A stretch of DNA of 64,000 nucleotides from Acidimicrobiales bacterium (GCA_965214945.1 OZ244029.1:125256-189255), one strand, 5' to 3'; positions 1,315 to 15,583 are shown, counted from the stretch's first letter. Program-made: numbers and translations. The notes: a model not told the origin generated them from the letters alone.

Positions 1315-1339
1315 GCGGTTATTCGGCCGCGGTTATTCG
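1315..1339. repeat. 11-nt duplication gcggttattcg, spacer gcc, gcggttattcg; the second copy contains the recR stop codon
   Basis: Read directly. Copies are at 1315-1325 and 1329-1339, and the recR TAA is tta at 1333-1335. Confidence 0.9.
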
Positions 1340-1941
1340 CCGACGAGTTCGCGGCGGCCTTCCAAAGCGCGCTCCAGGGTAAGCTCGTCGGCGTACTCGA
1401 GGTCTCCGCCCACCGGCAGGCCGCTGGCGATGCGGGTGACCCGAACGCCAAGCGGCTTGAGGAACCTGTACAACAGCGCCGCGGTCGCCTCGCCCTCGAG
1501 GTTGGGGTTGGTAGCGATGATCACCTCTTCGATGTCCTCGCCCGCGACGCGGGTCATCAGCTCCTTCAACCGAAGCTGTTCCAAGCCCACGCCGTCGATC
1601 GGGCTGAAGGCTCCCTGCAGCACGTGATAGCGGCCCGGAAAGTGCCCTGTTCGCTCGATGGCTACCACGTCCTGGGCGTCCTCCACCACGCAGACAAGGC
1701 GGGACTCCCGCCGCGGATCGTCGCAGACGGCACACTCGCCCCTGTTCTCGGCGAAGTTGAAGCAGCGGGGGCAGTACGACACTTTGGCCTTGGCCTCAGA
1801 AATAGCACGCGCCAGGCGGTTTGCGTCCTCTGTCGACGACCTAAGCAGAAAGAAGGCCACGCGCTGGGCCGACTTGGGCCCTATGCCAGGCAGCCGCCCG
1901 AGCTGGTCGATGAGTTCCTGAACCGCTGCGGAGTAACTCAC
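1333..1941 (-). CDS. recR: recombination protein RecR
   Basis: 202 aa with HhH motif [14 protein letters not shown], a C4 zinc finger CPRCFNF...CAVC and a Toprim-like core [10 protein letters not shown]. Confidence 0.95.
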
Positions 1942-3851
1942 GACCGCTCACCGGGCTGTGCCTCGCCGGCGTCTGCGAACTCAACCCCGGGAAACGCCTC
2001 TGCGATCTGCGCCTCGATCTTTGAGGCGGATTCGGCGGCCTCGTCGAGCTTGGTCGTTTCGCCGGGCATGCCAGCGAGCGTGAGAGCGCCGCCGGCACCG
2101 GCGTCAGCCGGCGCACTTGCTCCGCGCGGGCCGGCCGCGGGCCGGCCGGTCGTGGGCTGGCCGGCGGGAGAAGCGGCCGCGGGCAGGGCGGTGTCTGACG
2201 AAGCCTGCGGGTCCGGACCGGCCCTTAAGGGTTCATCCACTAAGGCCTGCCACAGCGCGAACAGCTCCTCGGGTGTGTGCGACCCCTTCTCGGACTTCAG
2301 CACTTGCTTGGCCCTGGCCACCACCGCCGCCTTGCTGATCCCGAGATGCCGCCCGGCCAGGGCCACCACCTCGGACGGTGTTTGGGGCCGTAAAGATCGA
2401 AGATCGACGCTTGAGGCCGACTGAGCGGGCTGGCTACTCCGACGCGAGTCCGGGCCCGGGTGTCGCGACGACACGGGTCGATTCGCAGAAGGCCCCGCGC
2501 GGGCGGGGGAACGCGGCGGCTTTCGCTGTGCCCGCGAGGCGGCACGTGCCGCGTCCGCGGGTTGGCCGGGACGGCTTTGACGGCCGCGCGGCGGCACAGG
2601 CGGCGGAGGCTGACTGGGCCGGCCCAGCGCCGGGCCGGCCCTCTCCATCCTCTTGACCTTGGACTCCAGCCGGGCCACGCGCCGGCGCAGCTCCTCGAGC
2701 GGATCGCCGGTCTCGGCCCGGCACAGCCTCACGAGAGCCACCTCGATGTGAACACGCTCATCGGGTGCTTGGCGCATATCGACCAAAGCCCTGCCCAGGC
2801 CTTCCAAGGCCCGGATCATCGCAGCCTGCGTCATGCGCTCAGCCAGCGACTCGGCCCGGTGGCTGTCCTTGTCGGACAACCTCGGCGGTGGTACACCCAT
2901 CTTCGTGAGGAAGCCGTCGCGCAAACCCGCCAGCGCGGCCTCTCCGACGGAACGAGGTGCGCGGCCGCGCCCGACAGCGTCGTCCACCGCAGAAAGCGCG
3001 GCAGCCGGGTCGTGCCCCGCTATCGCGTCGAGGATGTCGTCGGTGGTCGAGTCGAGCATCGCCATGTCGACTCCGGGCACTGCCGCGTCGAGGGCCGAGA
3101 GCGCATCGCGGACCGAGCCAGCGCCAGCGGCCACGGCGTAGTCGATCAGACTGTCGTCCGCGTCGAGCCCGGCGTCGGCGGCCACATGGCGCAGGTGGTC
3201 GGTCATCAGATCGGCGCCCAGCAGTCCCAATTCGAACACCTGACAGCGGCTCCGAATGGTCTCGGCCACCTTGTGCGGCTCGGTGGTGGCCAATACCCAG
3301 GTCACGTGGGCCGGGGGCTCCTCCAGCGTCTTGAGCAGAGCGTTCTCGGCGCCCGGCGTGAGCATGTGAACCTCGTCGAGCAAGTACACCTTCGACCGGC
3401 CCGGGGTCGCGAGAGCCACGCGTTCCAGCAGCTGGCGCATGTCGTCGACCTTGTTGTTGGAGGCGGCGTCCAGTTCGTACAAGTCGAAAGAGCGGTTCTC
3501 CTGGATGGAGACGCATGACTCGCAGGCGCAGCACGGCTCGCCGTCTTCGCCCAAGTCGGTGCAGTTCAGGGCTTTAGCCAGCAAGCGGGCCGTGGTGGTC
3601 TTGCCGGTGCCACGCGGGCCGTGCAGCAGGTAGGCGTGGCCCGCAGTGCCGTCCCGCACGGCGTTCTGAAGGGCCTTCACCAGGTGCTGCTGGCCCTTGA
3701 CTTCCGCGAATCGCTTCGGGCGGTATCGGAGATACAGCGCCTGGCGAGCCATCGCGGCCGACTCTAACGGCGCTCCTTCGAACGCTGCCAGAGCCGGCCC
3801 GAAGGCATGCTCTGACATAGGACGCCCGCCGACGTCGCGGGCCCGCTCCAC
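1938..3851 (-). CDS. dnaX: DNA polymerase III subunit gamma/tau
   Basis: Walker [10 protein letters not shown], Zn module CCACESC, Walker B LLDEVHML, sensor TIRSRCQ and a Pro/Ala-rich C-terminal half. The likely true start is ATG 3752 ([15 protein letters not shown]). The stop overlaps the recR start by 4 nt. Confidence 0.9.
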
Positions 3852-3927
3852 CTGCTGGTACCACCGGTTAGGGCGCTATTGCGGCACCTATGGTTCGGGC
3901 TGCCTCCGGGTGTGTCCGGCCGCTTCT

Positions 3928-4042
3928 GGGTGTGGCGGCCAGGCTGTCTGCGGCACCCGAGCGGTTCTGCTGAGAGCTGCTGCCTTCCGGCCCTGACCCG
4001 GTTCACAGGCGCTCGTCGCACAGGACCCGGCCGCCACACCCC
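3928..4042 (-). ncRNA. ffs: signal recognition particle RNA (small bacterial 4.5S type), copy 1
   Basis: The minus strand reads GGGGTGTGGCGGCC...GGTCAGGGCCGGAAGGCAGCAGC...GGCCGCCACACCC, which is the conserved domain IV motif with a GGAA tetraloop closed by a long terminal helix (3928-3940 pairs with 4029-4042). It lies upstream of dnaX, as is usual in actinobacteria. Ends are approximate. Confidence 0.8.
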
Positions 4043-4103
4043 GAAGCGGGCGAAACGTGACGGCACGGTACCCTCACCAGCCGGGGTCCGCTGCGGCGGG
4101 CTG

Positions 4104-4188
4104 GGAGGGTTGCCAGAGCGGCCGAATGGGCACGCTTGGAAAGCGTGTGAGGCGAGAGCCTCCGTGGGTTCAAATCCCACACCCTCCG
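4104..4188 (+). tRNA. tRNA-Ser (anticodon GGA), copy 1
   Basis: Acceptor GGAGGGT pairs with ACCCTCC, the anticodon loop is CACGC-TTGGAAA-GCGTG, there is a long variable arm, and the T-loop is GGTTCAAATCC. CCA is not encoded. Confidence 0.9.
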
Positions 4189-4413
4189 CCCTTGAGCTGA
4201 CGGGCTCCAGCGCGGCCTTCACAGCCCTTTCCGACGCTTGCGAGTGCCAGAGCCGCGCCGCGGGGCGGGAGCGGCCTTCGTCGGCCTTGGGCGGACGCGC
4301 TGCGTCAGAACGCGGGAAAGCGCCGCGAGACGAGGACGGCTGAGACGCCTCAGCGCTCTACGCGCTGGCCGCCGACACCTACAATGACGCTGTGGAGCTG
4401 ATCACGACAACCG

Positions 4414-5256
4414 TTGGGCGCCGGCGCAGCCGCAGCCGGTGAGCGACCCGTGAGCGACCCGGTGCCGCCGGCCGTGGAGGTCCGCGCCGTGACCAAGGTG
4501 TTCGGCAAGGGACGGGCCAGCGAGGTGCGAGCCTTAGAGAGCATCGACCTGGTCGTCGATGTCGGCGAGCTGGTGACGCTCATCGGTCCTTCGGGCTGCG
4601 GCAAGAGCACCCTGCTGCGCCTCGTTGGAGCATTGGTTGAGGCCACCGAGGGCACGGTGCTGGTGAACGGCAAGCCCGCCGAACAGGCCCGCCGGGATCG
4701 CAGCTATTCGATCGTGTTCCAGAAGGCGGGACTGTTCGATTGGCGCACCGTGTCCCGCAACGTGGAGCTGCCGCTGGAGGTGATGGGACACAAGAAAACG
4801 GATCGACGCCGGCGCGCCCGCGAGATGCTCGACCTGGTGAAGCTGCCGGAGTTCGCGGACCACTACCCGGCTGAACTCTCCGGCGGAATGCAGCAGCGGG
4901 TGGCGATCGCCCGGGCACTGGCCTTCCGGCCAGCCCTGCTGTTGATGGACGAGCCCTTCGGTGCCCTTGACGAGATGACCCGCGAGCACATGCAGAACGA
5001 GCTGCTGCGAATATCGTCCGCGACGGGCACCACGGTGTTGTTCGTGACCCACTCGATTCCCGAGGCGGTGTTCCTGTCCACCAAAGTCGTGGTGATGTCG
5101 CCCCGGCCCGGTCGGATATCGGCGATCATCGGCAACGACCTGGGGAAGCGGACCGAGCTCGTGCGAGACCATCACGAATTCCACGACAAGGTCACCGAGG
5201 TGCGCGAGGCCCTGCGGTCCAGTACGGCATCGAAGCCGCAAAGCGCGGTGCATTAG
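4414..5256 (+). CDS. ABC transporter ATP-binding protein (NitT/TauT nitrate/sulfonate/bicarbonate-like family)
   Basis: Walker A GPSGCGKST, signature LSGGMQQR and Walker B LLLMDEPFGALD. The exact start is uncertain. Confidence 0.9.
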   Translation: MGAGAAAAGERPVSDPVPPAVEVRAVTKVFGKGRASEVRALESIDLVVDVGELVTLIGPSGCGKSTLLRLVGALVEATEGTVLVNGKPAEQARRDRSYSIVFQKAGLFDWRTVSRNVELPLEVMGHKKTDRRRRAREMLDLVKLPEFADHYPAELSGGMQQRVAIARALAFRPALLLMDEPFGALDEMTREHMQNELLRISSATGTTVLFVTHSIPEAVFLSTKVVVMSPRPGRISAIIGNDLGKRTELVRDHHEFHDKVTEVREALRSSTASKPQSAVH

Positions 5257-5288
5257 GTCAAGGCGCGGTGCATTAGGTCAAAGCGCGG
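5241..5288. repeat. 20-nt tandem duplication (2 full copies plus an 8-nt third) containing the stop codon of the ABC ATPase gene
   Basis: aagcgcggtgcattaggtca / aggcgcggtgcattaggtca / aagcgcgg. The TAG stop is at 5254-5256 in copy 1. Confidence 0.9.
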
Positions 5289-5386
5289 GACCGCAGCGCG
5301 ACAGCGCCGCGCAGCCAGGGCGGTGCGGCTCGGCGCCTCGGCGGCCAGCCCAGTCTGGTCCGGTCGGGGGAGTACAGTGGCGGGCC

Positions 5387-6241
5387 GTGACCCGGATCGC
5401 CTGCTTGCAGACCGAGCCCGTGCTCGGTCGTGTCGAAGCCAACCTCGCCCGTCAGCTCGCCATGTGCGCCGAGGCCGTGGACGCTGGCGCCGATCTCATC
5501 GTGTTGCCGGAATGCTCGACCACGGGATGGGCTTTCCCGAGCCGTGAGCAGGCCGTGGAGGCATCGGAGCCGGTGCCCGGCGGGGCGTCTTGCACCGCGT
5601 GGATCGACCTCTGTCGCCGCAGCGGGAGTCATGTCGTGGCCGGTCTGGTCGAACGGGTTGGCGACCGCTTGTTCAACACGTCGGTGCTGGTGGGCCCGGA
5701 CGGCCACATCGGGACCTACCGCAAGGCCCACACCTGGGCGCTGGAGAAGGAGTTCTACGACCCGGGCGACTTGGGAGTGCCGGTCTTCGAGACCCCGTTG
5801 GGCCGCATCGGCATGCACATCTGCTACGACTGCTGGTTCCCGGAGTCGTACCGGCTGATGGCCGCCCAAGGCGCCGACCTGATCTGCGCACCGTCCAACT
5901 GGGTGCCCGTTCCCACTCAGGTCCCGCAGTTGCCGAAGATGGCCAACCTGTTGTGCATGACCAACGCCCACGCCAACTTGGTATACGTCGCTGCCGCCGG
6001 CCGGGTCGGCGCCGACGGCGAGGTGCCTTTCATCGGCAGCAGCATCATCGTCGACCATGCCGGATGGCCCCTGGCCGGTCCGGCCAGCACCACCGACGAG
6101 GAGATAATCTACGCCGACGTCGACCTGATCGGCTCGAGGCCTCTCCGACACGGCAACCCGTTCAACCAGCCTCTGCGCGACCGCCGGACCGACATCTACG
6201 CGGAGATGCTGGGGTCGTCGCACAAGGCGGGCGAATACTGA
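5387..6241 (+). CDS. carbon-nitrogen hydrolase family protein (nitrilase/amidase-like)
   Basis: 284 aa with the E-K-C triad contexts LIVLPECS, TYRKAH and ICYDCWFPE. Confidence 0.85.
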   Translation: MTRIACLQTEPVLGRVEANLARQLAMCAEAVDAGADLIVLPECSTTGWAFPSREQAVEASEPVPGGASCTAWIDLCRRSGSHVVAGLVERVGDRLFNTSVLVGPDGHIGTYRKAHTWALEKEFYDPGDLGVPVFETPLGRIGMHICYDCWFPESYRLMAAQGADLICAPSNWVPVPTQVPQLPKMANLLCMTNAHANLVYVAAAGRVGADGEVPFIGSSIIVDHAGWPLAGPASTTDEEIIYADVDLIGSRPLRHGNPFNQPLRDRRTDIYAEMLGSSHKAGEY

Positions 6242-6386
6242 TGGCGCCGAGTTCGGTGTCTGCGGCTGTGCGCGACCCTCGCGCCGGTTGACGCGGAGCC
6301 CGCGGCCGGCCCCCGACGGCGCTGTCGCCGTCGGCGCCCACCGCTTGGGTCTGGCCAACCGCTGGCTCGAGACCCCGGAGTACTAA

Positions 6387-6925
6387 GTGCCCGGACTCAG
6401 CGCCGACTGGGTGGCGGCCCGCTACGGCATCCCGGCCTCGGAGATCGCCAAGCTGGGCTCGGCCGAGAACCCGGCTCGGGCCTTCGCCTAAGGCGGCGCC
6501 GCCCCCGACACCGTCGTGGTTTTGGACGAGGCCTACGTGCACTATTCCGCCACGGCTGGCCACATCGGCCTGGCCGCCGAGCACGACGATCTCATCGTCT
6601 TGCGCACCTTCTTCAAGGCGTATGGCTTGGCGGGGCTGCGACTCGGCCACGGAAGGCAGGGACCGCCTGACTCGCCGTTTCGGCGAGCTGGAGCGGTTCA
6701 GGTTGATCCCGGGCAGCGGGTCCAACTTCGTGCTGGCGGAGATCCTGGACCCCGCCACCGACTCGACCAGGGTATTTGAGGGGTTGCTGGAGCGGGGGGG
6801 GGGGGGGGGTCATCGTCAAGGACGGCTCGTTGTCGTTCCGGGGCCTCGGGCGGCGCTACCTGCGCTGCGATGTCAGCCTCCCCAGCGCATGGACCAGCTG
6901 GTGGACGCCTTGGGCCGACCTGCCG
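6387..6925 (+). pseudogene. decayed class I/II (HisC-like) aminotransferase
   Basis: The N-terminal piece VPGLSADWVAARYGIPASEIAKLGSAENP ends at TAA 6489. The middle of the protein is missing. The sequence then reads [11 protein letters not shown]...[19 protein letters not shown] (PLP-Lys region), followed by a frameshift to [16 protein letters not shown]...VFEGLLERG, the G16 tract, VIVKDGS...RYLRCDV, and another shift to QRMDQLVDAL. Confidence 0.6.
6794..6809. repeat. homopolymeric G16 tract inside the aminotransferase pseudogene
   Basis: Counted directly as agc + 16 g + tcat. Confidence 0.95.
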
Positions 6926-7151
6926 TAGAGCCGGCCCGACCCGGATCCGAACTCGACTCGAGGCCTGCTGAAGCGGCGAGACTTCGGGTTTGGAGATCCG
7001 GCGACCGGGCGGGCGCGTCGGCGACATTGCGCGGATCATCGCCGAAGTGCTCACCAAGGCCGTCGAGCAGAACGCCCTCGGCGGACCTGTGGGCTGCCGC
7101 GGCCATGCGGTCGCCGCCGGCGCCGCCCCGGCGATAGACCGACCAGGCGGG

Positions 7152-7928
7152 TCACCGTCGGCGCCATGGCAGGAGGAGCCACTCCAGCAGAGCCACCGCT
7201 GCCAGCAGAGCGACCCCGACAGCGCTCGCTCCCAGCACGGCGGCCCAGGCGATGTCGAAACGGGACAGTCCCGCGCTCTGGGTGATGACCTGGCCGAGCG
7301 AGCCCTGAGTGCCACCGAAGTACTCGGCCACGATGGCCGAGATGATGGCCAGCGAGCTGGCCACCCGCAGGCCCGACATCACAAAGGGGAGCGCGTTGGG
7401 GATCCTGACGCGGCGGATCACCATCCACTCCGAGGCGTCCATGCTGCGCATCAGCTCGCCATGGGCGGGATCGATCTGGGTCAATCCCTTCGTGGCGTTC
7501 ACGAACATGGGAAAGAAGACCACGATGATCACCACCAGCCGCCGCGAGAACGGATCGGTGGATCCGAACCAGATGTTGAACACCGGAGCCAGCGACACGA
7601 TCGGCACCGCGGCCATGGCGACGGCCAGGGGCGTGACCAGGTCGCTGAACCACACCCAGCGAGACGCCACCAGCGCGCAGGCGACGGCCAGAACCGATCC
7701 CACGACCAAACCGAACACGGCGTTGCCCCCGGTCACCTCCACGCCGTCGCGAATTCGCCCGAAGTGCTCTCCGAAGGCGGTGCCGATAGAGGAGGGGCTC
7801 GGCAGGAGAAACCGCTTGATCTCGAACTGCCTCACTAGGATCTCCCACCCGACCAGGAACACCGTGGCGAACAACGCGGGCGCGACGACGACCGAGGAGC
7901 GGCCGGCCAGGCGCCGGACGCCGCTCAT
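7152..7928 (-). CDS. ABC transporter permease (NitT/TauT-type, BPD inner-membrane component)
   Basis: Start chosen at MSGVRRLAGRS..., whose ATG overlaps the upstream stop as ATGA at 7925-7928. The protein is multi-TM with an EAA-like region DASEWMVIRRVRIPNALPF. Confidence 0.85.
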   Translation of the reverse strand: MSGVRRLAGRSSVVVAPALFATVFLVGWEILVRQFEIKRFLLPSPSSIGTAFGEHFGRIRDGVEVTGGNAVFGLVVGSVLAVACALVASRWVWFSDLVTPLAVAMAAVPIVSLAPVFNIWFGSTDPFSRRLVVIIVVFFPMFVNATKGLTQIDPAHGELMRSMDASEWMVIRRVRIPNALPFVMSGLRVASSLAIISAIVAEYFGGTQGSLGQVITQSAGLSRFDIAWAAVLGASAVGVALLAAVALLEWLLLPWRRR

Positions 7929-8809
7929 GCCGGCCTCGCAGCCCGGTGGCGGTAACCGGGCATCAGCCGCTCCAGACCGCCCACGCAGTTGGTGAAGACC
8001 AAGCCCAGCACTCCGGCCCCGATGATCGCGCAGTACATCTTGGGGGGATCGGTCTGGGCCTGCTGAGCGTAGGCGAGGATGAGCCGGCCGATGCCGCCTC
8101 CGAGCCCGATCGATATCTCCCCAACGATCGACCCGATGATCGAAGCGGCGGCCGACAGCTTGAGCGCCGGCATCAGATAGGGCACTGCCGCCGGCAGCCG
8201 CACCTTCCACAGCGTGGACCACCAGCCCGCCGCGTACGACTGCATCAGCTCGATCGACTCAGGCGAAGGCGACTTCAGGCCTCGGATGCCGTTGACGGCC
8301 ACGGGGAAGAACGTCAGATAAGTGGCGATCAACGACACCGACATCCACGGCCTCCAGTCCACGATGTCGATGCGGTTGCCCCAGGTCACGATGATCGGGG
8401 CTAGCGCCAGCAATGGAATGGTCTGGGACAGGACGATGCCGGGCAGCATGCCCTGCTCGAGGAGTTTCGACCTCATCATCAGCACGGCCAAACCGATGCC
8501 GATCAGGGTGCCCAGGACGAAGCCGGCGAAAGAGATCCTAAGCGTGTACCAAGCGCCCAGCAGCACCGACTCGCCGACGGTGGTGTCGCTGCGCCGCTGC
8601 TGCGGTTCGAAGAACCGGGTGACGATATCCCACAGGGGAGGCAGGGTGACCTGATTCGTCTTGACGGGGAGGTCGCCGCCGATTAGCGGCCACTCGTCGC
8701 CGGTGGCGATGCCCATGCGGCGATAGCCCTCGTAGAGCGCGCAGAACAACGCGATGGCCACCGCCGCCGGCACCGCGCGCCCCAGCCCGGTCCGGATCCG
8801 ATGCAGCAT
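7925..8809 (-). CDS. ABC transporter permease (second membrane component)
   Basis: 294 aa, multi-TM, with EAA-like motif ELMQSYAAGWWSTLWKVRLPAAVPY. It is translationally coupled to the next permease. Confidence 0.85.
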   Translation of the reverse strand: MLHRIRTGLGRAVPAAVAIALFCALYEGYRRMGIATGDEWPLIGGDLPVKTNQVTLPPLWDIVTRFFEPQQRRSDTTVGESVLLGAWYTLRISFAGFVLGTLIGIGLAVLMMRSKLLEQGMLPGIVLSQTIPLLALAPIIVTWGNRIDIVDWRPWMSVSLIATYLTFFPVAVNGIRGLKSPSPESIELMQSYAAGWWSTLWKVRLPAAVPYLMPALKLSAAASIIGSIVGEISIGLGGGIGRLILAYAQQAQTDPPKMYCAIIGAGVLGLVFTNCVGGLERLMPGYRHRAARPA

Positions 8810-8890
8810 CAGACCCGGACCGGGCTGGGGCGCCGTCGTGTGCCGGATCGAACTCAGACGGTGGGACCGATGGCGATCCGGTGTCGGCGC

Positions 8891-10021
8891 TCAGTCGCCC
8901 CCGGGGGTCGGCTGGACCACGGCCGGAACCCAAGACTCGCCCGTCACGTCGAGGCCTGCGTCGCGGAGCTGCGCCAGGGCCTCCGCCATCAGATCGGTGC
9001 GGGTCGCCCCGTCGTCGGGCTCGGCCGCCAGGATCTCGAACTCGGTCGAGACGTCGACGGTCTGCTGGTACAGACCGGGGTCCAGAATCCCGATGCCGTC
9101 GGGCGACGGCCATATCAGCTTGTTGATCTCGTTGATCATCCACCGCTGATGGCCTTCGCCGAGGATGGGCGCCTTGTCCAGCACTATCTCGAGCCCCTCG
9201 TCGGGATTGTCTCGGCAGTAGATCCAGCCCTGCATCGAAGCGGCCAGGAAGTCCACGGTTTGGGCCCGAAAATCGGCGTCCTCGAGGCGGTTGGAGTCGG
9301 CCCACAGCGCGTCCTGCAACATGGCCACACCCAGATCGTTGTAGTCGATCACCACGAGCTCCTCGGGCTGGATGAGCTCTCCCGTGTCGGGGTTCACCGT
9401 CTCCAGCACCTGGGCGTACTCGTTGTAGATGGTGGCCTCGGCCGCGTCGATCTCGCGGTTGATCAGCGCCACCATGTCGAACTGCTGCTGCACCAATTCG
9501 ACGTCGGTCTCGGGATCCAGACCGGCCTGGCGCAGCGCGGCGAGCACCTCGAACTCATTGCCGAAGCCCCAGTTGCCGATCTTCTTGCCTCGCCAGTCTT
9601 CCACGGTTGTGATGCCCGAATCGGCCCACGACACCTGCCTGGTCCCCGAGCGCTGGAATACTTGGGCGATCTGCGTTAGCGGGGCGCCGGCCTCGCGGGA
9701 TGCGAGTCCCCGGACGGTGAATGCCACCGCGTAGTCGGCGTCGCCGTTGGCGACGACGGTCTGGGGCACGATGTCCACCCCGCCCTCAATGATGGTGAGC
9801 TCAAGGCCTCGGTCGGCGTAGAAACCCTGGTCGACCGCGGCGTAATAGCCGCAGAACTGACCCTGCGTGAACCATTGCAGCTGGAGCGAGATCGGGGTCA
9901 GCTCCTCCGCGGCCGTCTCGTCGCCATCCCCCGAGTCACTGCTGCAGGCGGCCCCGAACAACACGAGCACGACCAGCAGCGCCAACGCAGCTCGCCTCCC
10001 CCGCGAGCGAATGTATTCCAT
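8891..10021 (-). CDS. ABC transporter substrate-binding lipoprotein (NMT1/THI5-like)
   Basis: Signal peptide with lipobox LVLFGAAC. Mature part resembles NMT1/THI5 binding proteins (LQLQWFTQGQFCGYYAA, IGNWGFGNEFE). Confidence 0.8.
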   Translation of the reverse strand: MEYIRSRGRRAALALLVVLVLFGAACSSDSGDGDETAAEELTPISLQLQWFTQGQFCGYYAAVDQGFYADRGLELTIIEGGVDIVPQTVVANGDADYAVAFTVRGLASREAGAPLTQIAQVFQRSGTRQVSWADSGITTVEDWRGKKIGNWGFGNEFEVLAALRQAGLDPETDVELVQQQFDMVALINREIDAAEATIYNEYAQVLETVNPDTGELIQPEELVVIDYNDLGVAMLQDALWADSNRLEDADFRAQTVDFLAASMQGWIYCRDNPDEGLEIVLDKAPILGEGHQRWMINEINKLIWPSPDGIGILDPGLYQQTVDVSTEFEILAAEPDDGATRTDLMAEALAQLRDAGLDVTGESWVPAVVQPTPGGD

Positions 10022-10258
10022 GCTTACTCCTGTGGATTTGGGGTGATTGCGCCGGGCAGCCCGACCGTTCCCGGCGGGGTGCCGACGGGACGAAACTATA
10101 GGCGATGCCCGCGGTTAGCATCGATTTGTTGTGGCAGGCGACCGATACGGCGGCGGGCAACCGACCCGCCATGCGTTCGGCCGAAGCGGCGACCCGCCAG
10201 CCCGGCGCCATCCGAGCGGCGCTGTCGACGCAGCGCCGGCGACTGCGAGTCGGATCTG

Positions 10259-11680
10259 ATGGCGTCTCTCGTCGTTCGGGGCGGCCGGGTCGTGTCGGTC
10301 GGCGGAGTGTTCGCCGCCGACGTGGTCGTGGACGGCGAGCGCATCGCTGCCCTCAAGTCCCCAGACGAAGCCGGCACCGGCGCAGCCCTCGAGATCGACG
10401 CCGGCGGGTGCTACGTCATGCCGGGAGGGGTCGACACTCATGTTCACCTCGAGAATCCGGCTCTCTCGTTCACCACATGCAGCTCCGACGACTTCCACAC
10501 CGGCACCGTGGCCGCGGCCATGGGCGGCACCACCACCATCGTCGATTTCGTCAAGGCCCGACCCGGCGAGCCTGTCTACGACGCCTTCCACGCCCGCCGG
10601 GCTCGGGCCGAGGCCGAGGTGGTGATCGACTTCGGCCTCCATCCGGTGGTGCCGGCGGACGCCTTGGAGTGCGGCGCTCTCGAACAGCTCCGTCGGCTGG
10701 CCGCGGAGGGGGCCACCAGCTGGAAGTTCTTCATGGCCTACGAGGGGATGATGGCCGACGACCCGACCCTGATAGCCGGTTTCAGGGCCGCGGCCGCCGA
10801 AGGCGTGCTACCGATGGTGCACGCCGAGAACGGCCATCTCATCGCCGACGCAACCGAGCAGCTGGTGAAACGGGGCTGCGTCGACGAGCACCATCACCAC
10901 TCGGCCCACAGCCACCGGTCCGAGCAGGAGGCCGTCCATCGGGCCATCGCCATCGCCGAGTCGGTGGGCAGCAGCCTGTTCGTCGTGCACGTATCCAGCC
11001 GGTTCGCTCTGGTCGAGATCGTCCGGGCCCGGGCCCGCGGCCTGCCCGTCTACGCCGAGACGTGCCCCCAGTACCTGCTGGCCGCCTACGAGGACTACGC
11101 GGAGCTCGGTCACGAGGCGGCGAAGTACCTGTGCTCCCCGCCGATTCGCGAGCGAGCCAACCAGGAGGCCCTCTGGGAGGCGCTGTCCGGCGGGGCCTTG
11201 TCGACCATCGGCACCGACCACGCGCCGTTCTACATGGGTCAGCCCGACGACCTGCCGCCCCAGAAGGGGCGAGGCTCCGGATTCTTTCCCGACGTGCCCA
11301 ACGGCGTGCCCGGCATCGAGGACCGCCTGTCGGTCGTGTGGCAGGCCGGCGTGAACGGGGGTCGGTTTGACGCCTGCCGGTTCGTCGACCTGGTCGCCAC
11401 CGGTCCGGCCCGTCTGTTCGGCCTCTATCCTCGCAAGGGCGCCGTTGTCCCGGGCGCGGACGCCGATCTCGTCGTCTGGGATCCTGCCCTGAACCGGACC
11501 ATCAGCTCGGATCGCCACCACATGCGGACCGACTACAACCTGTACGAAGGGATGAGGATCACAGGCGGGGTCACCCATGTCGTCTCCCGCGGCGACGTGA
11601 TCGTGGAACACGGCCGGCTGAACGCAGCGGCGGGACGGGGGCGCTACCTGGCGCGGCAGCGACCGTGCCCGGTCCCATAA
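10259..11680 (+). CDS. dihydropyrimidinase / D-hydantoinase (cyclic amidohydrolase)
   Basis: Start at MASLVVRGGRVV. Motifs are GGVDTHVHL (HxH), KFFMAY (carbamylated Lys context), VHAENG, HVSS and GTDHAPF. The length is 473 aa. The ORF-track N-terminal extension from 9875 is rejected. Confidence 0.85.
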   Translation: MASLVVRGGRVVSVGGVFAADVVVDGERIAALKSPDEAGTGAALEIDAGGCYVMPGGVDTHVHLENPALSFTTCSSDDFHTGTVAAAMGGTTTIVDFVKARPGEPVYDAFHARRARAEAEVVIDFGLHPVVPADALECGALEQLRRLAAEGATSWKFFMAYEGMMADDPTLIAGFRAAAAEGVLPMVHAENGHLIADATEQLVKRGCVDEHHHHSAHSHRSEQEAVHRAIAIAESVGSSLFVVHVSSRFALVEIVRARARGLPVYAETCPQYLLAAYEDYAELGHEAAKYLCSPPIRERANQEALWEALSGGALSTIGTDHAPFYMGQPDDLPPQKGRGSGFFPDVPNGVPGIEDRLSVVWQAGVNGGRFDACRFVDLVATGPARLFGLYPRKGAVVPGADADLVVWDPALNRTISSDRHHMRTDYNLYEGMRITGGVTHVVSRGDVIVEHGRLNAAAGRGRYLARQRPCPVP

Positions 11681-11720
11681 GGGTCGCGTGCAAGGCCGGG
11701 CTCAGGGCGAGAACGCCGCC

Positions 11721-12752
11721 ATGAGTTCGGAGGCCTTCCCGCTGGGAGTCCATGTCGGCGAGCGCCTGACCCTCGCGGAGACTTGGTGGCAGGCCCAGTT
11801 CGCCGACACGCACGGCTTCGAATCGGTCTGGGTCGCCGAAGGCAGGCTCGCCCGCGACGGCATCGTCCCGGCCGCCGTCATCGCATCGCGCACCGCCAAT
11901 GTCCGCGTCGGCACCGGCGTCGTCAACAACAAATCGCGCAATGCGGCGCTCATGGCCGTCACTTTCAAGACGCTCGACGAACTGGCGCCGGGCCGGGCAT
12001 TTCTGGGAATCGGCGCCTGGTGGGAGCCGATCGCCGGCAAGGTCGGCACCCCGGTCGTGCGCCCGATCGCAGCCATGCGCGAGTACGTGACGGTTCTGCA
12101 AACCTTCTTCCGCAACGAGGTCGTGGACTTCAACGGCGACTTCGTGCAGATGGACGGGGTCCGGTTCGACAGCATGTATCACGAGAACCGAGCTGTCGAC
12201 ATCCCGATCTATCTCGGGGCCGTGGGCCCGCAGATGCTGGAGCTGGCCGGCGAGATATGCGACGGAGTGAATCTGGACTTTCTGCTGCCGGTCTCATACC
12301 TCGAGGGCGCCTTGGAGGCGATCGACCGGGGCGTCGCACGTCGCGCCGATGGCCGGGAGTCGATCCACATCACCCAGATCGTCGCCTGCAGCGTGGACGA
12401 CGACCACCCCGATGAGGCTGTGGACGCCTGCCGCGCCTTTCTCACCCAGTACTTGATGCAGCAGCCCCACATCGCCGAGCACTGCGGCGTCGAGCCCGAA
12501 TTGGTGACCAGGATCCGGGAGGTTGCCGGTTGGCCGGCCACGCCCGACGACGTGAGACGGGCGATGAGGCTCGTGCCCGTGTCCCTAGTGCACGAAGTGT
12601 GCGCCTGCGGGTCGAGCGGCCGGGCCTTCGCCAAGCTCGCCGAGTACAACCAAGCCGGTGTCGCCCTCCCGATCATTTCAACCCACGGCGACAAGGAGGG
12701 CACGCTCGTCGCTCTGGCCCGAGCCGCCGGACGGCGAGGCGGAACATCATGA
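11721..12752 (+). CDS. luciferase-like monooxygenase (LLM) family flavin/F420-dependent oxidoreductase
   Basis: FESVWVAEGR...GTGVVN...LDELAPGRAFLGIGAWW is the typical LLM TIM-barrel pattern. Start at MSSEAFPLG. Confidence 0.75.
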   Translation: MSSEAFPLGVHVGERLTLAETWWQAQFADTHGFESVWVAEGRLARDGIVPAAVIASRTANVRVGTGVVNNKSRNAALMAVTFKTLDELAPGRAFLGIGAWWEPIAGKVGTPVVRPIAAMREYVTVLQTFFRNEVVDFNGDFVQMDGVRFDSMYHENRAVDIPIYLGAVGPQMLELAGEICDGVNLDFLLPVSYLEGALEAIDRGVARRADGRESIHITQIVACSVDDDHPDEAVDACRAFLTQYLMQQPHIAEHCGVEPELVTRIREVAGWPATPDDVRRAMRLVPVSLVHEVCACGSSGRAFAKLAEYNQAGVALPIISTHGDKEGTLVALARAAGRRGGTS

Positions 12753-12813
12753 GCGGCCCGACCGCGGCGCCCGGCGCGAGCAGGCGGCGGATTCGGTCGT
12801 GAGCGCACGGCTG

Positions 12814-13629
12814 ATGCGCCTGGCCGCCGTGCAGGTCCGGTCGGGGGAAGACCGGGACGCCAACATCGCTATGGCGGCCGAACTGATCGACGAGGCAGCC
12901 GGCGACGGCGCCGAACTGGTGGTCCTGCCCGAGATCTTTGCCGCTCCTTTCGTCGGCGAGATTGTCGACGACGGCTATTTCCGGTGGGCTGAACCGATCG
13001 ACGGGCCCTCCAACACTATGGCCCGGATGCGCTCGGCCCGACATCAGATCGCGGTGGTGTCGTCCATTTTCGAAGAGACCGCCGTCCTTGGCGTGTACCA
13101 CAACGCCGCCTGCGTGTACGTGCGCGGCCGGCTCGAGTGCGTCTACCGGAAGTCCCATCTGCCGTTCTCCAACGGATTCCCCGAGAAGTACTACTTCAGG
13201 CCGGGCGCCGAGCCCCCGCCCGTGGTCGACGTGGGACCGGCCCGGGTCGGTCTGATCATCTGCTACGAGCGCCACTTCCCCGAGCTCGGTCGGTTGGTGG
13301 CGCTCGGCGGCGCCGACGTCATGTGCGTGCCGGCTGCTTGCGCCAGCGCTCCGGCCCGTTCGGTCTTCCGGCTCGAGCTGCAGGCCCACGCCGCCTTCAA
13401 CAGCATGTTCGTGGTCTGCGCCAACCGGGTCGGACGGGAAGGCGGCAAGGACTACTTCGGTCTCAGCGCCGTATGCGATCCCGACGGCGAGATCATCGTC
13501 GAAGCCGATTCGACGACCCCGCAAGCCGTGGTGGCCGAACTCGACCTGGATGCGGTCCTGCGGCGCCGCCAGCGGCTGCCGTACCTGCGAGATCGTCGAC
13601 CGTCGCTGTACCGGAGCCTTGCCGATTGA
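12814..13629 (+). CDS. carbon-nitrogen hydrolase (N-carbamoyl-amino-acid amidohydrolase / beta-ureidopropionase-like)
   Basis: MRLAAVQV..., with E in VVLPEIFA, K in VYRKSHLP and C in LIICYERHFPE. An alternative GTG start is at 12799. Confidence 0.8.
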   Translation: MRLAAVQVRSGEDRDANIAMAAELIDEAAGDGAELVVLPEIFAAPFVGEIVDDGYFRWAEPIDGPSNTMARMRSARHQIAVVSSIFEETAVLGVYHNAACVYVRGRLECVYRKSHLPFSNGFPEKYYFRPGAEPPPVVDVGPARVGLIICYERHFPELGRLVALGGADVMCVPAACASAPARSVFRLELQAHAAFNSMFVVCANRVGREGGKDYFGLSAVCDPDGEIIVEADSTTPQAVVAELDLDAVLRRRQRLPYLRDRRPSLYRSLAD

Positions 13630-14034
13630 TCAGCTAAGGGCCGGGACATTCATGTAGCGGCGCTCGATCAACGCCTTCCGCGATCGGGGACCGTCGGCGC
13701 AGTTCACCAGATCGGAAGTTCTCGACGGCCCGGCCTCGGTCGGGCGCCGGAATCGCTCGCCGGCCGTCAAGCCCTGGGACTCTGGGCTGAGCGCTACCAT
13801 GCCCTAGGCGAGCGAGGCTCGGCGTGCTCCTCTGAAGGCCACGCCTCCTCGGCGGACGCAGCAACGCGACGGGTCGACGCGCCATGCCCCGCGCATGTCC
13901 TCCCCATCCTCACGACGGCACAGAGAGAACCAGACGACGGTGACCTCCTCATCACAGGACGCTGGCACCACCGGTTAGGGCGCTATTGCGGCACCTATGG
14001 TTCGGGCTGCCTCCGGGTGTGTCCGGCCGCTTCT

Positions 14035-14149
14035 GGGTGTGGCGGCCAGGCTGTCTGCGGCACCCGAGCGGTTCTGCTGAGAGCTGCTGCCTTCCGGCCC
14101 TGACCCGGTTCACAGGCGCTCGTCGCACAGGACCCGGCCGCCACACCCC
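14035..14149 (-). ncRNA. ffs: signal recognition particle RNA, copy 2 (identical to copy 1)
   Basis: Same sequence as 3928-4042, shifted by 10107. Confidence 0.8.
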
Positions 14150-14210
14150 GAAGCGGGCGAAACGTGACGGCACGGTACCCTCACCAGCCGGGGTCCGCTG
14201 CGGCGGGCTG

Positions 14211-14295
14211 GGAGGGTTGCCAGAGCGGCCGAATGGGCACGCTTGGAAAGCGTGTGAGGCGAGAGCCTCCGTGGGTTCAAATCCCACACCCTCCG
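14211..14295 (+). tRNA. tRNA-Ser (anticodon GGA), copy 2 (identical)
   Basis: Same sequence as 4104-4188, shifted by 10107. Confidence 0.9.
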
Positions 14296-14308
14296 CCCCA
14301 CCGGTACC

Positions 14309-15583
14309 GTGCCCGCGATGAGACCGGAGCCGACGGGCGACCGCACCGTCGTAGCCATTGGTGACGACAGACGACAGAATTCTCTGAGGGTCATCGCCAC
14401 GCTGATCGGAGTGCTCGCGGGGCTGGCCGCCGTTCTGTGGCTGCTGGGACGCACGGGCGGCGATGGCCCTGCAGACGCCCCTGACGCGCCGCTGCCGATC
14501 GAAGATCCCGCCGCGGAGGCGTCGGGCCGCGGTTCCGACGCTGCAACACGCGCCCAGTCCGGGCCCGGGTCCGAGTCCGGCGCTACGGGTGGCGCTGTCC
14601 AGCCTGGCGAAGCAGGCTCCGCAAGCCGCTCCGACGCCCTAGGCGCACGGCTCGCCTACCTGACCGAGGGCGGTGTGGCGATCATGCGCTTGGCGGTTGT
14701 CACCGACGACGACGGGGCGCGTCTCGCGGTCGACGCCGTGGACCGCGTGCGGATCAAGGTGTCGGGCGCTGTGCTGCCCCTCAACGAGTATGCGCTTCTT
14801 ACCGACGGCAACCGCACTGTCGGCCTGTCTATGGGCGACAGTCGTGGCGACGGCCCGTTCACCGCTGTTGTCGTCGCCTCGGCGGCCCGCGTCGTACCCG
14901 ACAGCTCGCCGCTGGTCGAGTACTGGGTGATCGACCGCCGTGACGACCACAGCAAGGGTGTGCTGCTGGTGGCCTGGCATTTCTACGGATTCATGTCGGG
15001 GGACAGGCGGGTGCCGCCCGGGTCTGACCTGGTGGTCACAGGCGAGCCGGGAATACTGGTGGTGCCGCCCACCGGTAAAACCTTTCGCGCGGTGATCAGC
15101 GGCTTCGAGCCCGTGAGCGAGCACCGGGCGCTGGCAGCGGGCGGCGGTGTGCGCGTGGAGCAGCGCTGTGACGACCAACTCGTCTGCGAGGTGGTGGCGG
15201 TCGATTTGAGCGACGGCCGGGTGACAGTGCTGCCGGACGACTTCATCGCTGAACTCGGTGAGATATCGGTGTCGCCCGGAGGCCGCTGGCTGCTCAACGA
15301 CACCAGCCCGGCCTTGCTGTATGACCGGACGGAGGAGGAGCCGCGACAACTCCAAGTGGGCGGCTACGGCCGGGCCCAGTGGACACGCTGGCCGCTGCCG
15401 GAGGCGCACAGAGACCAAGCCGAGCCGCACTTCGGCGTGGCTGTCGGCTGGCTGACGACGGATCGGACGCCGTCGCTGGTTCTAGCCCGAGCCGACGCTG
15501 TCGGCGGACCCGAGGTGCTCGTTGTCGAGCTGTCCGGCCTCGACGCCGACCCCGTGCCGGGCTCGTCCTTCGTGCTGTGGTGA
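14309..15583 (+). CDS. hypothetical membrane-anchored extracytoplasmic protein
   Basis: N-terminal TM helix LRVIATLIGVLAGLAAVLWLL, then a Gly/Ser/Ala/Pro linker, then a beta-rich body of about 300 aa. No motif recognised. Confidence 0.5.
   Translation: MPAMRPEPTGDRTVVAIGDDRRQNSLRVIATLIGVLAGLAAVLWLLGRTGGDGPADAPDAPLPIEDPAAEASGRGSDAATRAQSGPGSESGATGGAVQPGEAGSASRSDALGARLAYLTEGGVAIMRLAVVTDDDGARLAVDAVDRVRIKVSGAVLPLNEYALLTDGNRTVGLSMGDSRGDGPFTAVVVASAARVVPDSSPLVEYWVIDRRDDHSKGVLLVAWHFYGFMSGDRRVPPGSDLVVTGEPGILVVPPTGKTFRAVISGFEPVSEHRALAAGGGVRVEQRCDDQLVCEVVAVDLSDGRVTVLPDDFIAELGEISVSPGGRWLLNDTSPALLYDRTEEEPRQLQVGGYGRAQWTRWPLPEAHRDQAEPHFGVAVGWLTTDRTPSLVLARADAVGGPEVLVVELSGLDADPVPGSSFVLW

Follow-up and report, generated by a model that had tools for sequence, protein, structure and literature searches.

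Insertion with long target duplication is a described class of gene gain (Nobusato et al., 2000, Gene 259:99; Furuta, Abe & Kobayashi, 2010, Nucleic Acids Research 38:2428, PMC2853133) in which long direct repeats of 46-423 bp enclose a block of less than 20 kb that lacks a mobility gene, the repeat being single at the empty site of relatives (PMC2853133). In the published cases the ends of the repeats coincide with gene borders and the neighbouring genes are intact; these cases came out of screens for restriction-modification genes, and the authors tied the mechanism to DNA breakage by those systems (PMC2853133). The locus considered here lies in a stretch of 64,000 nucleotides from an Acidimicrobiales bacterium (GCA_965214945.1 OZ244029.1:125256-189255; hereafter the window, a term that refers throughout to the whole stretch), in which a cassette of genes sits between two identical copies of a module composed of ffs, the gene encoding the RNA of the signal recognition particle (SRP), and a tRNA-Ser(GGA) gene. 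The ffs gene is normally present in single copy. Two further systems invite comparison with this locus, namely the genomic islands that target tRNA genes and Campbell-type integration, the latter being exemplified by the single crossover of a suicide plasmid and by the re-insertion of F-prime or lambda-dgal molecules. The organism itself is a sponge-associated member of the Acidimicrobiia near Candidatus Aldehydirespirator.

A duplicated ffs-tRNA-Ser(GGA) module flanks the cassette

Comparison of the sequence within the window confirmed the central observation of the initial annotation, namely that identical 332-bp repeats each carry the ffs and tRNA-Ser(GGA) genes in full. Specifically, positions 3860-4191 are identical to positions 13967-14298, forming an exact direct repeat of 332 nt at an offset of 10107. 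Each ffs copy scores 68.6 bits against an Rfam model whose gathering score is 40, and, judged by sequence, both ffs copies and both tRNA genes look complete. The repeats, their RNA genes and the flanking genes are as follows.

3860-4191, no strand: repeat copy 1 (R1), 332 nt exact, extending to 3854 with one mismatch at 3859
13967-14298, no strand: repeat copy 2 (R2), with its joint to the cassette at 13960/13961-13966/13967
3934-4032, minus strand: ffs (SRP RNA) copy 1, Rfam RF00169 Bacteria_small_SRP, 68.6 bits, full model 1-97
14041-14139, minus strand: ffs copy 2, Rfam RF00169, 68.6 bits
4104-4190, plus strand: tRNA-Ser(GGA) copy 1, ARAGORN; its 3' end is the boundary of the hotspot described below
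14211-14297, plus strand: tRNA-Ser(GGA) copy 2, ARAGORN
4192-13966, no strand: inserted cassette, 9775 nt; none of the 80 dnaX loci from relatives has it here
1333-1941, minus strand: recR, Pfam RecR_HhH, Toprim_4 and RecR_C; conserved left context, syntenic in approximately 70 relatives
1938-3851, minus strand: dnaX, Pfam DNA_pol3_delta2 and DNA_pol3_gamma3; conserved left context, GTG start 2 nt from the 338-nt segment
14309-15583, plus strand: right-flank gene, conserved, no Pfam domain; start probably the ATG at 14318

Outside of the 332-nt repeat, identity falls at once to approximately 30%, and comparison of the edges within the window detected no similarity beyond them except for GCTGG. 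This motif forms part of six additional bases on the left, GCTGGT at 3854-3859 and GCTGGC at 13961-13966, which match with a single mismatch (3859/13966), and the duplicated segment is therefore really 338 nt long. In a related strain, introduced below, the mismatched position is T in both copies. Both ends of the repeat fall at gene borders, the right edge 3 nt beyond the discriminator base of the tRNA and the left edge 2-8 nt upstream of the GTG start codon of dnaX. A scan of the repeat for sigma-70 promoters and terminators returned no sites, and the spacer between ffs and dnaX folds no better than shuffled sequences (z = -1.25). On the left flank, dnaX overlaps recR directly at 1938-1941, with no ybaB/ebfC gene between them, and tblastn maps of the relatives display the same dnaX-recR-glyoxalase order.

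The empty site is present in relatives and lies at a hotspot

A scan anchored on DnaX provided 80 loci from relatives, 32 of which are family-level relatives (Candidatus Aldehydirespiratoraceae). All 32 carry a single ffs-tRNA-Ser(GGA) module beside dnaX-recR, the cassette is found at this site in none of the 80 loci, and a tandem module is present in no relative examined. The sequence following R2 (CCGGTACCGTGCC..GATG) shares homology with the sequence immediately behind the tRNA in three relatives with an empty site (L025, L064 and L016), and in such relatives the homologue of the 14309 gene starts approximately 20-40 nt past tRNA-Ser(GGA). The relatives therefore read dnaX-ffs-tRNA-Ser and then directly the 14309 gene, which is the empty site that the initial annotation had predicted. 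Because the sequence after R2 directly follows the tRNA at these sites, both outer junctions of the window locus are ancestral, and the insert consists of the cassette plus one copy of the module. The relatives with an empty site belong to other species, with DnaX identity of at most 79%, and no empty site from the same species was seen. Among the genomes examined, duplication of the module is unique to the species of the window.

Alignments of the loci indicate that the 3' end of tRNA-Ser(GGA) is a hotspot of gene turnover throughout the family. Pairs of loci that are 93-99% identical in the dnaX flank (L010/L012, L015/L064 and L019/L064) diverge completely at the tRNA 3' end, and one relative (L023) has an insert of 2.2 kb at this position that is missing in another (L025). 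The gap that follows the tRNA ranges from approximately 0 to more than 10 kb, and its cargo includes SIR2, Schlafen/AlbA_2, HsdM, DUF4143 ATPases, a UvrD-like helicase, DDE and rve transposases, and one P4-type tyrosine integrase (L017:2925-4142).

Several additional observations pertain to this hotspot. An AT-rich island-end motif, TTTGAACTG..TTTTAG..TTATTACTT, occupies the first ~70 nt after tRNA-Ser(GGA) in L012, L015, L017, L018, L019, L027 and L039, with a weaker version in L007 and L021; this common motif suggests a single family of integrative elements that use tRNA-Ser(GGA). L010 and L012 are two contigs of one metagenome-assembled genome (MAG; CBDBEL01), and their dnaX-ffs-tRNA-Ser loci share 99.3% identity as far as the tRNA 3' end but are unrelated past it; they probably represent two co-assembled strains that differ in hotspot cargo, a Schlafen/AlbA_2 gene versus an HsdM methylase. 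A gene encoding Schlafen/AlbA_2 and HATPase_c_4 domains is present in four relatives (L010:6189-8135, L014:5786-7597, L023:7589-9525 and L024:2210-4119) with 88-93% nucleotide identity and at varying distances from tRNA-Ser(GGA), and it resembles a defence-type module that these relatives have in common and that is in circulation at the hotspot.

The module itself has changed orientation during the history of the order. In Microthrix-like and other more distant Acidimicrobiales (L032, L034-L038, L040-L042, L044, L045, L049, L051, L052, L055-L063, L073 and L074) it lies between tadA and dnaX in the orientation opposite to that of the window and of the Aldehydirespiratoraceae (L001-L029). Because the two groups differ in this manner, the module of approximately 260 bp must have been flipped as a unit in the course of evolution.

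Related strains indicate an old duplication, probably homogenised by gene conversion

Contigs assembled at k=31 were available from public runs, four of which (X1-X4) derive from organism A, the same strain as the window, while the other two (X5/X6) derive from organism B. The latter comprises one or two related strains that differ from the window by approximately 1-1.5% in dnaX and in the coding DNA of the cassette; the right non-coding end of the cassette is 92.7% identical. Strain B (runs X5/X6 and European Nucleotide Archive contigs L165 and L166) possesses the cassette together with the same joint between cassette and R2. Its R2 region (L165:4770-4900 and L166, no strand, equivalent to window 13961-14071) differs from that of the window in having T at 13966, which makes the repeat a clean 338 nt, two substitutions (13984 and 14001), and a 20-nt tandem insertion after 14016 that is absent from the dnaX-linked copy. 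This insertion is an imperfect tandem duplication (GCTGCCTCCGGATACGTCCG / GCTGCCTCCGAGTGTGTCCG) located between the ffs 3' end and the left edge of the repeat.

On the dnaX side of organism B, one contig equals the window repeat over 3860-3939 and lacks the 20-nt insertion, and a second variant carries 3866A and 3871C before joining the R2-type path. At the opposite end, the junction between the tRNA and the 14309 gene has 14297 C>T, a change missing from the R1-cassette junction. The core of the repeat (3910-4157) forms a single invariant contig for all copies. The strain-B copies thus differ in the unconstrained first ~50 nt and in the last bases, and the variants are mosaic.

Because strain B has the same joint and its copies of the repeat are not identical to one another, the duplication must be old, and these comparisons place it before the split of at least three strains. 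A dnaX-linked variant that is in part R2-type sequence is what gene conversion is expected to produce. Gene conversion and selection on the RNA genes, and not a recent event, therefore best account for the perfect identity of the two repeats in the window; the RNA-gene core is kept invariant by selection. Of the two sources of zero divergence initially put forward, a recent event and gene conversion, the former is thus contradicted by the shared joint and the differing copies, and the latter is the better reading.

The cassette probably arrived together with a copy of the module

Taken as a whole, the locus is best explained by a Campbell-type or illegitimate-plus-homologous insertion of the cassette together with one module, to which we assign a probability of roughly 0.55 and which we infer to be the most likely route. 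The ancestral site, still present in relatives, consisted of recR-dnaX-ffs / tRNA-Ser(GGA) followed directly by the 14309 gene, and a precursor would have carried the cassette behind the tRNA without a second module, its cassette/14309 junction reading ...GACGCTGG|CCACCGGTACC. Cassette and module would then have been cut out jointly by illegitimate recombination at an imperfect microhomology, GCTGG..CCACCGGT, which matches at 13 of 15 nt between the dnaX/module border (...CCT GCTGG TA CCACCGGT TAG) and the reconstructed cassette/right-flank border (...GAC GCTGG CCACCGGT ACC); a crossover within GCTGG would give the joint seen in strain B. If x denotes the dnaX side, R the repeat, C the cassette and y the side of the 14309 gene, the similarity of the two borders (C|y versus x|R) has a score of 11, which 1.7% of random pairs of 30-mers from the window also attain. 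The excised circle, or an ends-in fragment, would subsequently recombine through the 338-bp module with a chromosome bearing the empty site, in the manner of Campbell-type integration or of an F-prime/lambda-dgal-type re-insertion, and this single crossover would leave the native contexts intact, dnaX still being preceded by ffs and the 14309 gene by tRNA-Ser. The initial annotation had offered a Campbell-type crossover or a segmental duplication: the former is retained, as the geometry fits, while a plain segmental (tandem) duplication does not produce the layout.

Several points weigh against this account. Firstly, the microhomology is a suggestive but post hoc observation of modest significance (p ~0.02), and no genome was found that contains either the precursor, with the cassette behind the tRNA and no second module, or the circle. 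Secondly, the order x-R-C-R-y rests on the submitted assembly and on depth, given that k=31 contigs break at the repeat and cannot phase its two sides; a circle of R+C of 10.1 kb, present at one copy per chromosome, is formally possible and would give the same k-mer graph. Depth over the repeat is also noisy, at 0.9-2.6x that of the flanks with a mean of ~1.8 (X1-X6). Thirdly, the run variants were assigned to two sub-strains of organism B by inference from unitig topology at low depth (3-9x). Finally, an integrase acting in trans, or the fill-in of staggered breaks, would yield the same final structure.

Other routes to the same structure

The first of these two routes, site-specific integration in trans, is unlikely. 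It holds that cassette and module form a non-autonomous element akin to a cis-mobilizable element (CIME), whose attachment site (att) has grown to 338 bp and which is inserted at the tRNA-Ser(GGA) 3' end by a tyrosine integrase encoded elsewhere. Consistent with such a route, the repeat ends on its right 3 nt beyond the discriminator base, which is where the identity of tRNA-targeting elements stops, and relatives have a hotspot at the same tRNA end; the island of one relative encodes the P4-type integrase noted above, and the AT-rich island-end motif is common to seven to nine relatives. The first bases of the cassette, TTGAGCTGAC, resemble the core of that motif, TTGAACTGAC, but the resemblance is weak. 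Identity between the repeats moreover spans the whole tRNA, the upstream spacer and the entire ffs gene, none of which an integrase needs, and the islands of relatives contain no tRNA-derived, att-like direct repeats of at least 14 nt within 10 kb. Nor does the cassette supply an enzyme: as the initial annotation had stated of integrases, recombinases and transposases, no integrase or transposase domain was detected among the cassette open reading frames scanned with Pfam, and tblastn searches of the whole 64-kb window with the tyrosine integrase, DDE transposase and rve transposase of a relative gave no match.

Insertion in one step with a long target duplication, as proposed by Nobusato and Kobayashi, is similarly improbable as the mechanism. 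Linear DNA would be joined into breaks staggered by 338 nt, one just upstream of dnaX and the other at the tRNA end, and repair synthesis would copy the intervening stretch. The locus does match the class as such, in which direct repeats of 46-423 bp flank an insert that lacks mobility genes, relatives retain the empty site and the target genes stay intact; both repeat ends here are at gene borders, as this route would have them. Set against this, no mechanism has been demonstrated for breaks so staggered, restriction-modification genes, the focus of the published cases, are absent here, and the similarity of the two borders at GCTGG..CCACCGGT is not predicted.

Far less probable is a two-step origin in place, in which a microhomology-mediated tandem duplication of a 330-nt module, with CCACCGGT at both ends, was followed by insertion of the cassette at the R-R junction. 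The octamer CCACCGGT does occur at positions 2-9 of R and across the border between R2 and the right flank, and the insertion point is a known hotspot. This scheme, however, predicts repeats of 330 nt and a cassette end abutting CCACCGGT, whereas copy 2 is preceded by GCTGG(T/C)A, as on the dnaX side; it also requires two events where one suffices, and its tandem intermediate occurs in no relative.

A very low probability likewise attaches to an artefact or episome, that is, to a chromosome that really reads dnaX-R-14309 and into which a separate circle of R plus cassette, or the DNA of another strain, was wrongly threaded. The sources are metagenomes, and the contigs, as noted, all break at the repeat: those of X1-X4 stop 30 nt inside each repeat edge, yet they supply the x-to-R, R-to-C, C-to-R and R-to-y paths. 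Since each of the four junction paths occurs at similar depth in six public runs, misassembly, which the initial annotation had named as the trivial alternative, is unlikely. Depth over the cassette is 0.75-1.2x that of the flanks in X1-X4, and it tracks flank depth in all of the runs compared, which come from different samples and include three strain variants. The Pfam scan detected no replication or partition gene in the cassette, and related MAGs from these hosts are single contigs at chromosome level; if the genome of the window was built, as is likely, from reads of comparable length, these would easily span 332 bp. The same depth, at ~1x, bears on the earlier proposal that the cassette can be excised or amplified by RecA: the repeats would let RecA delete or amplify the cassette, but nothing points to current mobility, excision or amplification. 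Lastly, tandem duplication of R plus cassette followed by loss of one cassette was rejected, as it would need a precise deletion recreating the native tRNA/14309 junction.

Content and origin of the cassette

The genes that the initial annotation had listed for the cassette, the decayed aminotransferase included, are borne out by Pfam.

4414-5256, plus strand: ATP-binding cassette (ABC) transporter ATPase, PF00005 (ABC_tran), E 1.2e-31
5387-6241, plus strand: C-N hydrolase 1 (nitrilase superfamily), PF00795 (CN_hydrolase), E 3.8e-52
6387-6925, plus strand: decayed class I/II aminotransferase with frameshifts, an in-frame stop and a G16 run at 6794-6809 (three-frame translation)
7152-8222, minus strand: ABC permease, PF00528 (BPD_transp_1), E 2.2e-19
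7925-8809, minus strand: ABC permease, PF00528, E 1.5e-20
8891-10021, minus strand: NMT1/THI5-type substrate-binding protein, PF09084, E 2.4e-37
10259-11680, plus strand: hydantoinase/dihydropyrimidinase-like amidohydrolase, 473 aa, PF01979 (Amidohydro_1), start inferred from translation
11688-12752, plus strand: luciferase-like (LLM) oxidoreductase, PF00296 (Bac_luciferase), E 1.2e-55
12658-13629, plus strand: C-N hydrolase 2 (beta-ureidopropionase/N-carbamoyl amidase-like), PF00795, E 3.9e-47

Because an NMT1-type ABC importer, a hydantoinase-like amidohydrolase, an LLM oxidoreductase and two C-N hydrolases are encoded, the cassette is predicted to function, probably, in the uptake and hydrolysis of a cyclic amide or ureide, such as a pyrimidine or hydantoin. 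Some gene starts call for adjustment. The listed reading frame of the permease at 7152-8222 overlaps the next gene, and its true start therefore probably lies further in; the start of C-N hydrolase 2 is probably near 12814, going by a gene of 271 aa called in strain B. For the hydantoinase, a start at 10105 was rejected, as translation places it in another frame and the start near 10259; an orthologue of 473 aa is called in the strain-B contigs.

The decayed aminotransferase retains a read-through fragment of PF00155 (Aminotran_1_2; E 3.6e-7, profile positions 180-229 of 361), and tblastx of the region against the loci of relatives returned nothing useful. Its G16 run is one base shorter in the X1 and X2 contigs, and the X3 and X4 contigs break there; the run is either variable in length or difficult to sequence. 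A near-palindrome of 57 nt (8777-8833, 91% self-complementary), located between the binding-protein gene and the permease start, may form a hairpin within the transporter operon, and this self-palindrome was the only match in a search for cassette DNA elsewhere in the 64-kb window.

G+C content is flat over the cassette and its flanks, and a composition-based test for foreign origin was rejected for this reason. Homologues of C-N hydrolase 2 are 99% identical in strain B and next 66-75% identical; their sources name them beta-ureidopropionase or N-carbamoylputrescine amidase, and the named top matches are from Acidimicrobiales or Aldehydirespiratoraceae. A contig of 3.84 Mb, whose C-N hydrolase is 72% identical, displays the same core order at another locus, beside MMPL and paa genes: the ATPase comes first, two permeases and the binding protein follow on the opposite strand, and the hydantoinase, LLM oxidoreductase and C-N hydrolase complete the series. 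When metagenomes were scanned with the hydantoinase, the best marine contig clusters were 73-75% identical, with a different gene order and no ffs or tRNA. By these matches, the cassette is a catabolic cluster typical of the lineage, and not obviously foreign DNA.

Implications and comparison with known systems

The locus provides a clean natural example, outside of restriction-modification systems, of gene gain with long target duplication: a catabolic cassette the size of an operon was gained without a recombinase of its own, both neighbouring operons are intact, and the unusual outcome is a genome with two intact-looking ffs genes and two tRNA-Ser(GGA) genes. The strain data in addition point to concerted evolution of the duplicated RNA genes, and the mapping of the tRNA-Ser(GGA) 3' end as a hotspot for defence and accessory genes across Candidatus Aldehydirespiratoraceae should help in the annotation of sponge-symbiont genomes. 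General concepts are unchanged by the finding. A broader and decidedly doubtful idea is that the ffs-tRNA-Ser(GGA) module serves as a portable landing pad in these sponge symbionts. Were this so, cassettes that gain the module by aberrant excision could move between strains and be re-inserted by host homologous recombination, or by a trans-acting integrase reading a very long att, amounting to a recombinase-less exchange of cassettes in which SRP RNA and a serine tRNA would also double in dosage; on this view, earlier cycles of duplication and loss would have left their trace in the reversed orientation of the module among Microthrix-like relatives.

With the tRNA-targeted islands, CIMEs and additive flexible islands such as fGI1 of Candidatus Actinomarinales, the locus shares insertion exactly at the 3' end of a hotspot tRNA, an empty site in relatives, cargo that varies among close relatives, and the lack of an integrase inside the unit. 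It differs from islands with a tyrosine integrase in that none is located next to att and none was found nearby, and from tRNA-targeted islands generally in that the repeat comprises the whole tRNA plus 244 nt upstream, including ffs, in place of a 3' fragment, leaving two intact tRNAs; stacked cassettes and partial att copies are likewise missing. Campbell-type integration accounts for the order flank-homology-cargo-homology-flank, for outer junctions that are native, and for repeats that are substrates of RecA. Unlike the classical cases, however, the locus has no vector, phage or plasmid backbone, and the circle is hypothetical, its origin being drawn only from the microhomology of 13 of 15 nt.

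The closest likeness of structure is to insertion with long target duplication. The repeat exceeds 30 bp (332 exact, or 338 with one mismatch) and occurs once at the empty site of relatives, where both flanks align, and the insert, at 9775 nt, is below 20 kb, the Pfam scan of cassette reading frames and the tblastn searches with an integrase and two transposases having found no mobile-element gene. The cargo, in contrast, is catabolic and transport-related and not of the restriction-modification type, and the target consists of two complete, probably essential RNA genes at a tRNA hotspot. By its structure, the locus is nonetheless a member of this described class.

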